Source: an uncultured Flavobacteriaceae bacterium (GTDB taxonomy: Bacteria > Bacteroidota > Bacteroidia > Flavobacteriales > Flavobacteriaceae). Taken from it: 64,000 nt of DNA. The DNA lies in the NCBI GenBank assembly GCA_943789455.1, contig CALSUE010000008.1, positions 11,907-75,906 of the forward strand, given 5' to 3'. How positions within the stretch are numbered: the first letter of the stretch is position 1; every line of letters starts with the position of its first letter. Below the pieces are notes generated by a model, which had not been told where the DNA came from, made no database searches, and was given only the letters and a program-made list of their open reading frames with translations. Both the position numbers and the translations under genes were made by a program. Below are positions 32,859-55,113 of the stretch, piece by piece.

Positions 32859-35800
32859 TTACTTCGAAAAAATAATTCTCTTCGTTGTACTTTTGTTTCC
32901 TTGTGACACATTTAATACATATATACCGCTGGCTAGTTTTCCTGTAGCTATTGGTTCATCGAATAACGATTGATTACTTGTGTGATTAGAGCGATAAACT
33001 CTTCTACCTTGTAAATCAAATAATTCTATTTTTACGTTATCGTTTGATGTTGTCTCAAAACGAACATTGATTATACCATTCGAAGGGTTTGGATATATAG
33101 ACACATTAGATAAAGAGTAAGAATTTGTACTTAATGTGGTTGCTTCTATACTAACCTCTTGATTTGGTAACCAACCATTTAATGAGTTGGTGATATCTAC
33201 CTTAAATGAATCAGAAAATAATATGGTTTGCGTGTTTGAATATGCAATAACCCCTGCATCTACATCAGCTTGCGTAAAAGTTCCACCAATAGATAAATCT
33301 GTGCCATTTTTAGTAATTACACCCATAGTTGGCACCATAACAATAGTATAAACTTGCTGAGAAGCCGTCTCTGAGGCTGTGGTTGCTGACATGTCAGAGG
33401 TTGTAAACACAGTGCTTTGGTTTGCGCTAACTGATACGGGATTAGATGAAAACTCTGGAAGAGATGAATTTGCTTCAGCTATACAAACCGTTATGGTTGC
33501 TCCATCTAAACTTCCTGTTGTAAATGTTCCTCCATTCTGGAAAGTTTCATCATTTGCAATTAACAACCAAGTACCTAAGGCACTTTTTCCTGCAGAATTA
33601 GCTAAACTTTGTGCGGGTTTTATGTTTCCTGAAATTGCAGGGTCTGCTGTTCCGCACACCAAATCTTCACCGTTGTCATCAAATACAGCACCTGTAACAT
33701 TGGCAACTTGATCGCATACGTTTTCTAAAAGAACCGTTGTGTTAGCCCCTAAAGCTTCTGGTTCTTGAATTAGCACTTCTAGCTCTCCAATAGCAACGTG
33801 AGAAATATCTACATTAACTTTTAATCTACTTATTGTTAGATTATCTGTAATTTCTATTGGTAATGAAGCTGAAACAGAACCCCCACCACCTAAACGATCG
33901 TTATCAAAGTCTGTTGCAGTATATGTATTTGTACAATCTTCTGACCCAGCTGTTTGAAAACTATAAATTACAGGTGAAACAGCTAAACCACATTGATTTG
34001 TTGGGTTTACTCTCCAGTAGTAAATACTATTTTCAACAAGACCTGTAGCTGTAAATTTTATATCAGTTTGAGTCGATGTTGCTATAATGTTAGTAAATGA
34101 TGGATTATCAGACAATTCTATGGTATACGATTCTGCATTTATGTTTTCATTCCAAGCTAACTCAATCTCAGGGAATAAAACACCTGCTTCCTCGTTCGAG
34201 GGTGATGATAAACTCATTGGGTTATCTATAAAGTCTGGATGCACCACCCTTAACTCTACTTTTTTAGATTGTGTTTCATCACCGTTACTTGCTGTTACGC
34301 TTAATTCATACGAACCAGCGGCAACACTTTCTAAATTTGATACAGTCATAACAACGTCACCATTTTGACTTATTGAGGATGGTGAAAAAGTTGCTGTTGC
34401 TCCTGCAGGTAAATTATCAGCTGTTATCGTTGTTGTTGTAGCAATTTGTTGCGTATAATTAAAATTAAATTCTGCATCCGTTGTTGAACATTGAATAACT
34501 TCAGGATTAACACTAGATAAATTAATATCAGAAAGTGATCCTGTTACTATAAGTGAGTAGTTTTGAGAATCATTCACTAATGCTCCTTTGTGAGAAACTG
34601 TAATTATATACTCACCCGAAGCATCAGCAATCTCTATTTTTTCAAATGGATCAACTAAATTATCTCCTTGTTCATTCGTGTTTACAGAGGTTAATCTCCA
34701 AGGTAAATATTCTGTTGTTTCACCATCTATAACTTGTGAAACTCGAATATCTAAATCATTAACTAAAGCAGGAGTTGCATCATTTACGGTATTATTTTGT
34801 TCTCCAGCAACATCTGTCCATGAAATTGAAGCCACTAATGGATTTTCTCCGTCTGACTTAATATTCATGGTAAAGGTGTCTTCATTGTCTAAAGTTTTTT
34901 CTTTTATAACACTCTGAAAACCAACTTTATCAATGGTCTCTACAGCAGACTTTACATTTAATAAACCCCAACCTGTAGTAGCATCTGGTCCAATAAGTGT
35001 TTGAGATGAAGCGTTCGAGTTATCAGGTGTAATATCATCAGCCGTGTGAAGCGCTAGGCCTTTTAGTGTAGCACCTAACATAAAAGAACCATTTACATTG
35101 CTGTAGTGTTGTTGAACCAACAATAATGAACCCATTACATTTGGTCCAGACATAGAAGTTCCTGAATAATTTCCGTAGCCATTACTACTACCCACTGAAG
35201 AGATAACGCCCGATCCGTTTCCGGTAATATCTGGCTTCACTCTTAAATCATCTGTTGGGCCTTCAGAACTCCCATTATTTCTATTCATAGAAATTAAGTT
35301 TCCGTCAGCATCGATTACAGCATCTTGACCATTAGCAACAGATAAATTATTTTTAGCCGTATTCATTCCAGTTAACTTGTCAAACTGTGAATTTCCTTCT
35401 AGAGGATCTGTGTTTGATGAATTATTTCCACCATCATTTCCGGCTGAAACCACCTGAAGATAATAGGGTGCATTGTACATGATGGCATCAAACTCTTTTG
35501 CATCAAAACCGTATATACCCGCACCATTTTGAACGTTACTTAGAGGATACCCATAAGAGTGGTTAGAAAGCAACATTCCGTCTGAAGCTGCTGCTGCACC
35601 TTCAGGAATATCTTGACTCCAACGATAAGACACCCCTTTTGCTTGTGGCGCCATTCCTTTTGCTTCAGGATTAACACCTGAGGCTAAAATAGTACCTGTA
35701 ACATGAGTTCCGTGGTCACTGAATTGATTTTCATCATCCCCTATAATAACTCTATCATCACCTCCAGGCCCGTCAAACTCTTGGTGTTCGGTGTATACCC

Positions 35801-36218
35801 AGCCACCATCCCAAACATAAGCTGTCATGTTTTGACCTTCTAGTTCTAAACCTAAACTACCTCCAATATTAAGGTGGTTAACTCTAGTTGAAATTGCTGC
35901 GTTTTGATTAAAAGTTTTGTAATAGATAGGCCTGTTATCTTCAGAAACCTTCATTAATTCATATAAAGATCCATTTTCAATATATGTTATCGCCCAACCC
36001 TTAAGAGACGCCATCTCTAAAGCTTTCTCTTTTGCCTCTACTTGAATTAACCTTGAAGATTCTTCAATGTTTTTTAATTCTTGTGTGTTGTTTGCTTTTT
36101 TAATTTCTACTATTTGTTCTTCTGTTTGAGAAAAAACAAAGTTAGCTGATAACAATAAGGAAAAAACTGCTAATTTTTTTAAGTAATTTTTTTTCATTTC
36201 TTTTAAGTTTTTTATCAA
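32859..36218 (-). CDS. Secreted subtilisin-like S8 protease with Ig/FN3, P-domain, cadherin-like repeat and T9SS type A CTD
   Basis: Triad VWDGG / HGTHVTG / GTSM; FTQADVDAG cadherin-like motif; IYPNPS...GIYVLNVSQG CTD. Confidence 0.93.
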   Translation of the reverse strand: MIKNLKEMKKNYLKKLAVFSLLLSANFVFSQTEEQIVEIKKANNTQELKNIEESSRLIQVEAKEKALEMASLKGWAITYIENGSLYELMKVSEDNRPIYYKTFNQNAAISTRVNHLNIGGSLGLELEGQNMTAYVWDGGWVYTEHQEFDGPGGDDRVIIGDDENQFSDHGTHVTGTILASGVNPEAKGMAPQAKGVSYRWSQDIPEGAAAASDGMLLSNHSYGYPLSNVQNGAGIYGFDAKEFDAIMYNAPYYLQVVSAGNDGGNNSSNTDPLEGNSQFDKLTGMNTAKNNLSVANGQDAVIDADGNLISMNRNNGSSEGPTDDLRVKPDITGNGSGVISSVGSSNGYGNYSGTSMSGPNVMGSLLLVQQHYSNVNGSFMLGATLKGLALHTADDITPDNSNASSQTLIGPDATTGWGLLNVKSAVETIDKVGFQSVIKEKTLDNEDTFTMNIKSDGENPLVASISWTDVAGEQNNTVNDATPALVNDLDIRVSQVIDGETTEYLPWRLTSVNTNEQGDNLVDPFEKIEIADASGEYIITVSHKGALVNDSQNYSLIVTGSLSDINLSSVNPEVIQCSTTDAEFNFNYTQQIATTTTITADNLPAGATATFSPSSISQNGDVVMTVSNLESVAAGSYELSVTASNGDETQSKKVELRVVHPDFIDNPMSLSSPSNEEAGVLFPEIELAWNENINAESYTIELSDNPSFTNIIATSTQTDIKFTATGLVENSIYYWRVNPTNQCGLAVSPVIYSFQTAGSEDCTNTYTATDFDNDRLGGGGSVSASLPIEITDNLTISRLKVNVDISHVAIGELEVLIQEPEALGANTTVLLENVCDQVANVTGAVFDDNGEDLVCGTADPAISGNIKPAQSLANSAGKSALGTWLLIANDETFQNGGTFTTGSLDGATITVCIAEANSSLPEFSSNPVSVSANQSTVFTTSDMSATTASETASQQVYTIVMVPTMGVITKNGTDLSIGGTFTQADVDAGVIAYSNTQTILFSDSFKVDITNSLNGWLPNQEVSIEATTLSTNSYSLSNVSIYPNPSNGIINVRFETTSNDNVKIELFDLQGRRVYRSNHTSNQSLFDEPIATGKLASGIYVLNVSQGNKSTTKRIIFSK

Positions 36219-40787: not shown

Positions 40788-41219
40788 TTAACAAGCTGGT
40801 ATTTTATTAACCCTATTTTGATGTCTTCCTCCTTCAAAATCTGTTTCTAAAAATGTTTCTACCATTTTTAATGCTTGAGGAATTGATGTATATCTTGCTG
40901 GGATACATAAAATATTAGCATTATTATGTTGTCTAATTAAGGCCACAATTTCTTTAGACCAACATAAACCTGCTCTTACTTCTTTGTATTTATTTGCGGT
41001 CATAGCAACACCATTAGCGCTCCCACATAATAATATTCCATAGTGTGCTTTATTTAAAACAACATCTTTTGCTACCGGATGTACAAAATCTGGATAATCT
41101 ACACTATCGTGAGAATCAGTACCATAATTTTTAACAACTATACCTTTCGATTCTAACAATTTAATAATCTCAAATTTATATGCTGTAGCAGCATGATCAT
41201 TCCCTATAGAAATATTCAT
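40788..41219 (-). CDS. rpiB: Ribose-5-phosphate isomerase B
   Basis: GNDHA, DYPDF, CGSANG, HNNAN, FEGGRH. Confidence 0.96.
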   Translation of the reverse strand: MNISIGNDHAATAYKFEIIKLLESKGIVVKNYGTDSHDSVDYPDFVHPVAKDVVLNKAHYGILLCGSANGVAMTANKYKEVRAGLCWSKEIVALIRQHNNANILCIPARYTSIPQALKMVETFLETDFEGGRHQNRVNKIPAC

Positions 41220-41747
41220 AATAAGTTGGTTTTTATGCTTTTAATAGCAACAAAAATACAAATACATATGGTTATCAACAGGTTTAAAAAGTAATTTTAT
41301 ATTTTAATTAATAACTACTTATTTATTAGTTAGTTAACATCATTTTTATAATTGTTTAAAAGTATAGGTAAGTTTTAAAAAATAGATTTGATTTATCCAT
41401 TTTTATTTACAATACATATTCATTTATCACATACACAATAAAAACTATTATTTTTTAATTACTTCTTATAAACATTATTTACCTATAATTTTTATACTTA
41501 TTAACTTTTATTTAATTAAAAAAAAGCTGTTTATAGTTGTTTATAAGTAGTGTTAATAAATAGTATTTTTCTTTATTTTAAAGGAAAAAATATATAATAA
41601 AATGTGTATTATTTTTAATAAATAACAAATCAAAAAAAAAAACAAGTTTTCTCTATTAACTATTCACATGCTATTATAACTAACAAATGTTTTAATTTTA
41701 AATTAAAAAAAAAGTAATTATAATATAGATTGTTAATAAAGTTATCT
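41220..41747. other. Candidate replication origin (oriC)
   Basis: 528-bp non-coding gap with very few G/C bases. DnaA-box-like nonamers: TTATCAACA 41272, TTATAAACA 41466, TTATTAACT 41498, CTATTCACA 41660; on the minus strand CTATAAACA 41528, TTATAAACA 41538, TTATTAACA 41551 and 41731. parS sites lie about 12 kb away. Confidence 0.7.
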
Positions 41748-42677
41748 TCAATTAATTACAAATTGAATTGCTTCTTGAAAAATAGTTACTTTTAAAGAAC
41801 CATACCCTATTATTTCACCATCTGCTTCAATAATTGATTCACAATTATTTGTAATTGTTATTTCTTTAGTTTTATAAGTAACTACTTTTTTATGATATAC
41901 AATGTTTCCATTATATAATTTAGGAAGATTAAAAAGTAAATCTAGAATTGAAAAATTTTTAACAATAGTAATATCTAGTAAACCATCTATTGGATTTGGT
42001 TTTTTTGTAATTCTTAAACCTCCTCCTGAATATTTACAGATTCCAAATACAATCATTAAACATTGCTCATGAATTGTTTCTGATTTACTAGTAATACTGT
42101 ATTTTTTTGTATTGTAAGAGAATAAACTATATAATCCACTTAATAAAAATGCTATAGATCCTACCTTTTTTAAATACTTTAAGTTTTTAACAACATAACC
42201 GTCGTATCCTATTCCTGCTAGATTATTAAAATATTCTTTCTTTCCATTTAATAATGTTATACAGCCTATATCTTGTAAAATTGTAGTATTTTTTTTAATT
42301 ATTTCAATTGATTTTTCAATAGAATTAGGAATATTATATGTTTTTATCCAATCATTACCTGTGCCTATCGGAATTATACCAAGTTTAATTTTAGATGTTT
42401 TTATATATTTTTGCATCATTATTCCGTTTACAATATGATGTAAAGTTCCATCACCTCCAACAGAAATAATATTTCTATACCCTTTTTTTATACCCTCTTT
42501 AGTAAGTATAACTTCATGTTTCGTATATTCAGTAAAAGCATAAGAATATTGAATATTATTTAATTTTAGTAAATATTGAATTTTATTCCACGATTTTTTA
42601 AAATTCTTATTTCCAGCGAAAGGGTTAATAATTAAATACCATTTATGTATCTCAACAGGTTGGTTCAAATCATACAT
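41748..42677 (-). CDS. Diacylglycerol/lipid kinase (YegS/DAGK family)
   Basis: NPFAG, GGDGTLH, PIGTGNDW, EADGE. Confidence 0.93.
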   Translation of the reverse strand: MYDLNQPVEIHKWYLIINPFAGNKNFKKSWNKIQYLLKLNNIQYSYAFTEYTKHEVILTKEGIKKGYRNIISVGGDGTLHHIVNGIMMQKYIKTSKIKLGIIPIGTGNDWIKTYNIPNSIEKSIEIIKKNTTILQDIGCITLLNGKKEYFNNLAGIGYDGYVVKNLKYLKKVGSIAFLLSGLYSLFSYNTKKYSITSKSETIHEQCLMIVFGICKYSGGGLRITKKPNPIDGLLDITIVKNFSILDLLFNLPKLYNGNIVYHKKVVTYKTKEITITNNCESIIEADGEIIGYGSLKVTIFQEAIQFVIN

Positions 42678-53238: not shown

Positions 53239-55113
53239 ATGAGTTTATTTAACACAACATACGATGTAATAGTAATTGGTGGAGGTCATGCAGGTAGTGA
53301 AGCTGCCGCCGCAAGCGCTAATATGGGCGCATCAACGTTGCTTATTACAATGAATCTTCAAAATATTGCTCAAATGAGTTGTAATCCAGCTATGGGTGGA
53401 ATTGCAAAAGGGCAAATTATTCGTGAAATAGATGCGTTAGGAGGATATAGTGGAATTGTTACTGATAAAACCGCTATTCAGTTTAAAATGCTTAATAAAT
53501 CAAAAGGTCCTGCTATGTGGAGTCCACGAGCTCAATCTGATAGAATGATGTTTGCGGAAACCTGGAGAACCATGTTAGAAAATACAAGCAACCTTGACTT
53601 TTATCAAGATTCAGTTAACGGCTTGCTTTTTGAGGGGTCCAAAATTGTTGGAGTCAAAACAGTTCTTGGTCTTCATATTAAAGCCAAGTCAGTTATTGTT
53701 ACTGCAGGCACTTTTTTAAACGGCCTTATTCATATTGGTGAAAAAACTTTTGGCGGTGGAAGAGCTGGAGAAGGCTCTTCAACAGGTATAACAGAAGACC
53801 TTGTAAAAAAAGGTTTTGAATCAGGAAGAATGAAAACTGGCACTCCGCCAAGGGTAGATGGTCGGTCTTTAGATTATTCAAAAATGGAAGAGCAGCCAGG
53901 AGACGAACACACTGAAACATTCTCTTATTTAGACACTCAACCCTTAGTTAAACAGCGACCTTGTTATCTAACCCACACAAATCCAAAAGTACATGATGTG
54001 CTAAGGGGCGCTTTTGATAGGTCTCCTATGTTTAATGGCCGAATACAATCCACAGGCCCTAGATATTGCCCCTCTATAGAGGACAAAATTGATAGATTCG
54101 CCACAAAAGACAGGCATCAAGTTTTTGTAGAACCTGAAGGCTGGACAACAGTTGAAATTTATGTTAATGGCTTTTCAACCTCCATGCCTGAAGACATTCA
54201 AGATAAGGCAATTCGATTTATTCCAGGATTTGAAAATGTGAAGTTTTTTAGATATGGATATGCAATTGAATATGATTATTTCCCTCCAACACAGTTAAAA
54301 CATTCATTAGAAACCAAACTTGTTGATAATCTCTTCTTTGCCGGTCAAATTAATGGTACAACTGGCTATGAAGAAGCTGCTGCACAGGGGTTAATGGCTG
54401 GCGTCAACGCTGCTCATAAGGTTCAAGGTAAAGCCCCTTTTATACTAAAAAGAAATGAAGCTTATATTGGAGTTCTAATTGATGATTTAATAACTAAAGG
54501 AACAGAGGAGCCTTACAGGATGTTTACATCAAGAGCAGAATATCGTACTCTTTTAAGACAAGATAATGCAGATATAAGATTAACCCCCCTTGGTTTCAAA
54601 ATTGGGTTAGCTTCTAAGGATCGGTTAGAAAAAGTAAATTTAAAAATCCAAAAAACAGAAAAATTAATCAAGTTTCTACAACAAACTAGTGTTACTCAAC
54701 ACCAAATTAACCCTATTTTAACCCGTAATAAGTTATCTTTAATTAACCAATCCGTGAAACTTTATAAGATTGCTTCACGCCCACAACTTTCATTAACAGA
54801 TTTCCAAGAGCTAGACGCTCTTCAAACTTTTTTTCAGGAAGAAGGTATAGATAAAACAATTCTAGAACAAGTAGAAATTCATTTAAAATACTCTGGATAT
54901 ATTGACAAAGAACGATCTAATGCAGACAAGTTAAATAAGCTTGAAAACGTCATTATACCTCAATCCTTTAATTATAGCAAAGTCAACTCCTTATCTCATG
55001 AAGCGAAAGAAAAGCTAAGTAAGATTCAACCAACAACAATTTCACAAGCTAGTAGAATAAGCGGTGTTTCGCCAAGTGACATTTCTGTTCTATTGGTTTA
55101 TATGGGGCGGTAG
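53239..55113 (+). CDS. mnmG: tRNA uridine-5-carboxymethylaminomethyl(34) synthesis enzyme MnmG (GidA)
   Basis: GGGHAG, MSCNPAMGG, GPRYCPSIE, GQINGTTGYEEA. Confidence 0.99.
   Translation: MSLFNTTYDVIVIGGGHAGSEAAAASANMGASTLLITMNLQNIAQMSCNPAMGGIAKGQIIREIDALGGYSGIVTDKTAIQFKMLNKSKGPAMWSPRAQSDRMMFAETWRTMLENTSNLDFYQDSVNGLLFEGSKIVGVKTVLGLHIKAKSVIVTAGTFLNGLIHIGEKTFGGGRAGEGSSTGITEDLVKKGFESGRMKTGTPPRVDGRSLDYSKMEEQPGDEHTETFSYLDTQPLVKQRPCYLTHTNPKVHDVLRGAFDRSPMFNGRIQSTGPRYCPSIEDKIDRFATKDRHQVFVEPEGWTTVEIYVNGFSTSMPEDIQDKAIRFIPGFENVKFFRYGYAIEYDYFPPTQLKHSLETKLVDNLFFAGQINGTTGYEEAAAQGLMAGVNAAHKVQGKAPFILKRNEAYIGVLIDDLITKGTEEPYRMFTSRAEYRTLLRQDNADIRLTPLGFKIGLASKDRLEKVNLKIQKTEKLIKFLQQTSVTQHQINPILTRNKLSLINQSVKLYKIASRPQLSLTDFQELDALQTFFQEEGIDKTILEQVEIHLKYSGYIDKERSNADKLNKLENVIIPQSFNYSKVNSLSHEAKEKLSKIQPTTISQASRISGVSPSDISVLLVYMGR

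Follow-up and report, generated by a model that had tools for sequence, protein, structure and literature searches.

Does the large AT-rich gap between rpiB and a lipid kinase gene, in a flavobacterial genome whose dnaA lies on another contig, serve as the origin of chromosome replication? A preliminary description of this DNA had proposed an origin unlinked to dnaA at exactly this place, and the present analysis bears the proposal out. On comparative sequence evidence, the gap is very probably the chromosomal oriC of this member of the Flavobacteriaceae, a relative of Polaribacter and Tenacibaculum, since its cluster of DnaA-box variants is unique in the genome and conserved across genera, and the skew minimum of three relatives falls on or near the orthologous gap. 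Throughout, the window is the whole stretch of 64,000 nucleotides analysed (G000:C8:11907-75906), taken from a draft genome of 2.23 Mb with 32% GC. As this assembly consists of 12 contigs, the origin could in principle fall in a contig gap.

At 528 bp, the gap (41220-41747) exceeds every other stretch of the window between open reading frames (ORFs) of 100 aa or more, the runner-up measuring 416 bp, and its GC content of 15% agrees with the earlier remark that it is almost devoid of G and C. Genes for RNase R, recA and mnmG lie in its vicinity. The divergent gene direction previously noted around the gap holds on the left, where the minus strand carries 33 of 40 ORFs; the right side is mixed, with 8 plus and 10 minus. 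A search of the gap against Rfam for an RNA gene returned zero matches at E <= 1, and scans for sigma-70 promoters and terminators gave scores no better than those of shuffled sequences. The rpiB ATG is preceded, at a distance of about 32 nt, by the element TATTTTTG, which fits what we take to be the Bacteroidota -7 consensus, TAnnTTTG. Since this motif is conserved upstream of rpiB, the gap would serve as an origin and as the rpiB promoter together. Elsewhere in the window, a minus-strand ORF of 1119 aa (32859-36218) lacks an equivalent at the syntenic position of the Polaribacter chromosome, and its best match in Tenacibaculum insulae is displaced by 40 kb and inverted. Such loss of synteny points to a lineage-specific insertion or a relocated gene.

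Features of the candidate origin and its surroundings (window coordinates; conservation refers to the orthologous loci discussed in the text)
Feature	Position	Strand	Remarks
rpiB, flanking gene	40788..41219	-	NCBIfam NF004051, E = 6e-47; start codon anchors box positions
Candidate oriC, whole AT-rich gap	41220..41747	.	box cluster, uniqueness, conservation, skew minimum in relatives
Probable rpiB promoter -7 element TATTTTTG	41251..41258	-	block CTGTATTTTTGT >=90% conserved
Best-conserved box TTATCAACA within GGTTATCAACAG	41272..41280	+	94% conserved; ~61 bp from rpiB ATG
Degenerate box TTTTAAACA, family consensus TTCTTAACA	41353..41361	-	TTCTTAACA in 59/66 gaps vs 2.25 expected
DnaA-box variant TTATAAACA, family consensus TTATCAACA	41466..41474	+	90% conserved; ~255 bp from rpiB ATG
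Candidate unwinding region, 53-bp AT-only	41475..41527	.	boxes point inward from both sides; putative role
Same-orientation trio: TTATTAACA 41551-41559, TTATAAACA 41538-41546, CTATAAACA 41528-41536	41528..41559	-	
Degenerate box TTATTAAAA, one mismatch	41613..41621	-	98% identity to window sequence across 65 loci
Canonical-type box CTATTCACA, C at position 6	41660..41668	+	inside >=90% conserved block
Alternative unwinding candidate	41691..41730		
DnaA-box variant TTATTAACA	41731..41739	-	~520 bp from rpiB ATG; position class kept in 53 loci
YegS/BmrU-family lipid kinase, other flank	41748..42677	-	TIGR00147, E = 1.2e-41
mnmG (gidA), usual origin indicator gene	53239..55113	+	TIGR00136, E = 5e-258; 11.5 kb from gap

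The gap is rich in variants of the DnaA box. The pattern YTATNAACA matches six times (41272+, 41466+, 41528-, 41538-, 41551- and 41731-), against 0.33 +/- 0.57 expected when the gap is shuffled locally with its dinucleotides preserved, and the count stayed below six in all 2000 shuffles. When TTATNAACA was allowed at most one mismatch, 11 sites were found vs 5.1 expected (P ~0.02), in keeping with the at least eight related nonamers reported earlier; CTATTCACA at 41660 is a twelfth site, additional to these. Genome-wide, the gap is the top YTATNAACA cluster, with six sites in 600 bp vs three for the runner-up, and the tandem-box pattern has no second occurrence in the genome. The closely spaced same-orientation trio that had been described is indeed present and is followed by a GC dinucleotide and then a T8 run; its members TTATTAACA and TTATAAACA are 94-98% conserved. 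The classical DnaA box TTATNCACA has no copy in the gap, nor in nearly all of 66 orthologous gaps, and TTATCCACA is absent from the gap as well. The previous claim that canonical boxes are missing was therefore right as regards TTATCCACA, but it overlooked the conserved CTATTCACA site, the only one in the gap with C at position 6, which lies within the block GTTATAATAG.GTGTGAATAG in an alignment of 65 loci. Apart from the cluster, two copies of TTATAAACA in opposite orientation flank the short intergenic region downstream of gpsA (window:38086-38166), 3 kb to the left of the candidate origin; this pair may be an outlying DnaA site or may have arisen by chance.

Conservation of this arrangement was followed by scanning GTDB species genomes with the kinase protein, which gave 80 loci from Polaribacter, Tenacibaculum and other Flavobacteriaceae. 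The order of kinase, AT-rich gap and rpiB is kept in about 70 of the 80, where the orthologous gaps measure 480-1100 bp, have 12-24% GC, contain 4-8 YTATNAACA sites and have essentially no TTATNCACA. All 9-mers were then counted in 66 orthologous gaps with no prior motif. The top 9-mers were TTATCAACA in 63 of the 66 gaps (1.0 expected), TTATAAACA in 64 and TTATTAACA in 60, so that unbiased counting recovers the consensus TTAT(C/A/T)AACA and, with it, the prevalence of A at position 6 that had been noticed in the window. Distances of the boxes from the rpiB ATG (~520, 463, 340, 327, 317, 255 and 61-71 bp) are near-fixed in several genera, and the box at 41466-41474 keeps its position across genera. 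In an alignment of 65 sequences, the boxes are at least 90% conserved vs 40-60% for the spacers. A second Flavobacteriaceae genus that was sampled likewise has rpiB-adjacent gaps, with 4-5 boxes carrying A at position 6 and at most one carrying C, and none of 20 non-Flavobacteriaceae genomes has an origin-like gap within 1.5 kb of rpiB. The tandem pattern TTATNAACA-N(1-5)-TTATNAACA occurs family-wide in 27 of 121 genomes vs ~19 for the reversed control and is uninformative at this level because tandem spacing is clade-specific. One contig labelled as an uncultured Acidimicrobiia MAG (L020, CAXMOR010000028.1) carries the gene for a lipid kinase of Flavobacteriaceae type that shares 58% identity with that of the window; it is probably a mis-binned contig.

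Three complete relatives place the minimum of cumulative GC skew on, or at most 20 kb from, the orthologous gap. In Polaribacter sp. HL-MS24, the minimum of a 400-kb span, at 1,116,000, coincides exactly with the gap; the skew sums to -3023 over the left 200 kb and to +4086 over the right 200 kb. Tenacibaculum insulae has its V-shaped minimum at 1,192-1,212 kb and its gap at 1,191.5 kb (sums of -4266 and +2051); the corresponding values for a single-contig genome of the same genus as ours (G184) are 863-873 kb and ~863 kb (sums of -2370 and +4676). Once gene orientation is allowed for, GC3 skew reverses its sign right at the Polaribacter gap, and in T. insulae and G184 no more than 25 kb from theirs; the T. 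insulae offset of ~25 kb matches the place of a local inversion. The distance between dnaA and the locus amounts to 32-43% of the chromosome in eight complete relatives. In the present genome, dnaA falls outside the window, as had been stated, at C1:894.7-895.2 kb (Bac_DnaA, 215.8 bits). This contig has a terminus-type skew maximum near 495-550 kb, from which dnaA is 400 kb (18% of the genome) away; this implies that ~32% of the genome separates dnaA from the origin, in line with the relatives.

Skew resolves the switch only to 10-25 kb, which leaves room for an explanation in which the gap is a non-origin DnaA locus, be it a datA- or DARS-like site of titration or reactivation or a DnaA-controlled rpiB promoter, and the true origin is another gap within ~25 kb. 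The corrected switch in T. insulae would suit this explanation, as would the fact that Ori-Finder names mnmG as the origin neighbour in other Flavobacteriaceae, this gene being 11.5 kb off here. However, the T. insulae offset matches the local inversion, the Polaribacter minimum sits exactly on the gap with the corrected sign flipping there, and no other gap of the window or the genome holds a comparable cluster. A fixed multi-box layout combined with AT-only stretches is, moreover, typical of origins. We consider a near-origin DnaA locus of this kind unlikely, and an origin within the gap itself remains by far the better account of these observations.

Skew in the draft genome needs separate treatment. 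Full-genome skew, which the preliminary description had put forward as a check, is decisive in the complete relatives only; raw GC skew on contig C8 shows no turn at the gap (the right 50 kb sum to about -450), because a turn cannot show up on so short and so rearranged a contig. Between 10 and 103 kb, C8 is colinear with a part of the Polaribacter chromosome that includes the skew minimum, and in Polaribacter too the first 50 kb on the right rise weakly (+517), the strong rise starting just past the end of C8. We calibrated a GC3-skew estimator that allows for gene orientation on C1, whose GC3 skew is +0.120 in leading-strand and -0.045 in lagging-strand genes, which gives a replication component of 0.082 and a coding component of 0.037. 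Along C8, the corrected component runs from -0.062 through -0.030 and -0.013 to the gap, and from there to -0.002 and +0.033. This change is weak (z ~1.5), and C8 is the only contig on which the component goes from negative to positive. Ordering the contigs on G184 to rebuild the skew did not succeed for the origin region, which is too rearranged, only C8 40-67 kb being colinear. Two further observations concern the region at large. Relative to Polaribacter sp. HL-MS24, this genome has an inversion that spans the origin region. In addition, up to ~100 kb from the origin, GC3 skew has an attenuated replication component, both in the window and in the 400-kb spans of the relatives; frequent origin-spanning inversions that mix the strands would produce such attenuation.

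The absence of a raw V on C8, together with a raw cumulative-skew V at ~240 kb on C3 and two to three TTWTNCACA sites at C3:242.9-243.4 kb, could be taken to mean that the active origin lies elsewhere, on C3 or in an unassembled gap, and that the rpiB gap is a relic. The C3 candidate was rejected. Its corrected component is negative along the whole contig, as for a single replichore (r = -0.052, z = -3.0 for 240-355 kb), and the raw V arises because 66 of 93 genes are on the plus strand. The V also adjoins a breakpoint (C3 ~220.5 kb, C2 ~84-87 kb) of the origin-spanning inversion relative to Polaribacter, and the C3 sites lie in or beside coding sequence with no AT-rich gap. The boxes of the rpiB gap, on the other hand, are intact and agree with the family consensus, and we judge a relic to be very improbable. 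Neither the raw skew of C8 nor the V of C3 counts against an origin in the rpiB gap.

Equally hard to sustain is the idea that the repeats bind a transcription factor or nucleoid protein that regulates rpiB and has nothing to do with DnaA: most boxes do lack the classical C at position 6 and a conserved promoter element shares the gap, but the motif is one base off the E. coli DnaA box and is given as the Maribacter DnaA box in DoriC-derived data, an array of ~12 sites over 528 bp goes far beyond the needs of a housekeeping promoter, and nothing would explain why the skew switch falls at this locus in three genomes.

If the gap is the origin, as we think very probable, DnaA would bind an ordered array of about a dozen 9-mers with the consensus TTAT(C/A/T)AACA and would, starting at the tandem boxes of like orientation, form an oligomer that extends over the AT-only DNA beside them. 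The duplex would open most likely at 41475-41527 or, alternatively, at 41691-41730, and replication would then proceed bidirectionally from the opened duplex. We infer that the first of these regions is the preferred site of unwinding. It overlaps 41484-41523, one of the two least stable 40-bp intervals (-35.9 kcal/mol), although the interval 41585-41624 is equally unstable and two more come within 0.2 kcal/mol in a gap that is 85% AT as a whole.

Basal unwinding systems (BUS) offer a further comparison. The published BUS rule (PMC8287927) comprises a box with at most two mismatches, an optional tandem box with at most four, a spacer of up to 16 nt (modal length 13 nt) and a minimum of three trios, on a defined strand, whose middle base is conserved. 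This pattern occurs at two sites in the gap. The first consists of the tandem boxes 41528-41546, the GC dinucleotide and the T-run, with a 12-nt spacer from the better box and four trios; the second consists of the box 41731-41739, a 13-nt spacer and a T-phased trio run. The box 41466-41474 is also followed downstream by a 10-nt spacer and then six trios. Control runs with the wrong base were nearly as long (3-4 vs 3-6), and the match means little because the pattern is very permissive in 85% AT DNA. The tandem same-orientation boxes, the GC dinucleotide and the four or more triplets with the required middle base resemble a Bacillus subtilis-type BUS. Unlike there, the trios here form an A/T homopolymer-like run rather than 3'-GAT-5' repeats, and the second site fits equally well.

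The E. coli oriC lies between gidA/mnmG and mioC, ~42 kb from dnaA. Like it, the present locus would combine a DnaA-box array with an AT-rich unwinding element, near mnmG and not adjacent to dnaA. It differs in having A instead of C at position 6 of the boxes, in its other flanking genes, in the distance to dnaA (about a third of the chromosome), and in lacking GATC sites and any sign of SeqA/Dam control.

Further parallels come from the phylum. The authors of the Prevotella intermedia OMA14 study, citing DoriC, state that oriC of Bacteroidetes is commonly far from dnaA. For Mariniflexile litorale KMM 9835 and Algorimicrobium bowmanii KMM 8389, Ori-Finder placed oriC near mnmG and not at dnaA, in agreement with skew. 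A DoriC-derived supplement (PMC8287927) assigns to Maribacter sp. HTCC2170 the species-specific standard box 5'-TTATCAACA-3' and lists both TTATCAACA and CTATCAACA among the BUS boxes of the predicted origins of Zobellia (galactanivorans) and Lacinutrix (sp. 5H-3-7-4); for P. gingivalis it gives TTTTCAACA. In the gap family, the repeated element that dominates, TTATCAACA or a close variant of it, matches the Maribacter motif. The same supplement gives TGTTCCACG as the species-specific box of Flavobacterium johnsoniae and Dokdonia. Set beside the TTATCAACA entries, this indicates that DoriC treats the Flavobacteriaceae non-uniformly, and some of the TGTTCCACG entries may deserve re-examination.

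Like the locus studied here, the DoriC and Ori-Finder origins of Flavobacteriaceae and other Bacteroidetes are far from dnaA, consistent with skew, close to mnmG and furnished with TTATCAACA-type boxes. They are, however, computational predictions from other genera, whereas here the neighbours are rpiB and a YegS-type kinase and fixed box positions are documented across genera. An origin distant from dnaA, the proximity of mnmG and the TTATCAACA box had thus all been recorded computationally, and the novelty of these elements is low. In this light, the preliminary description of a lineage-specific dialect of the DnaA box was correct in that the variant is real, but it overstated its novelty, as TTATCAACA is one base from the E. 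coli box and already present in DoriC-derived data.

Whether the box variant has a counterpart in the initiator was approached through DnaA itself. The protein is full-length (475 aa) and typical, and was aligned to solved DnaA structures. For domain IV of E. coli DnaA, two papers that cite the crystal structure list base-specific contacts by R399, P423, D433, H434, T435 and H439 and describe them as conserved in Firmicutes. In an alignment to B. subtilis DnaA, the protein encoded here keeps four of the six contact residues and has Ala at the positions of E. coli P423 and T435. This pair (SLA...RDHATV) is found in all five Flavobacteriaceae examined within a sample of the phylum; in the other families sampled, Lys occupies the first position, and the second is mostly Ser or Thr. 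The two alanines may explain why the boxes favour A instead of C at position 6, the relationship being a correlation only. It is conceivable, if on the whole doubtful, that the recognition code between DnaA and its box has been naturally re-tuned throughout the family, the protein and about a dozen fixed-position sites having co-evolved. If this were true, a swap of the residues could reverse the box preference.

For an uncultured marine lineage of Flavobacteriaceae, the present analysis provides an origin annotation at base level. An rpiB-adjacent origin with boxes at fixed positions would be common to Polaribacter, Tenacibaculum and their allies, and could be put to use in estimating growth rates from metagenomes (peak-to-trough ratios), in rotating assemblies and in constructing oriC plasmids. 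Furthermore, the box variant, taken together with the two substitutions on the recognition surface of DnaA, offers a cheap and testable case of possible co-evolution between an initiator and its origin.
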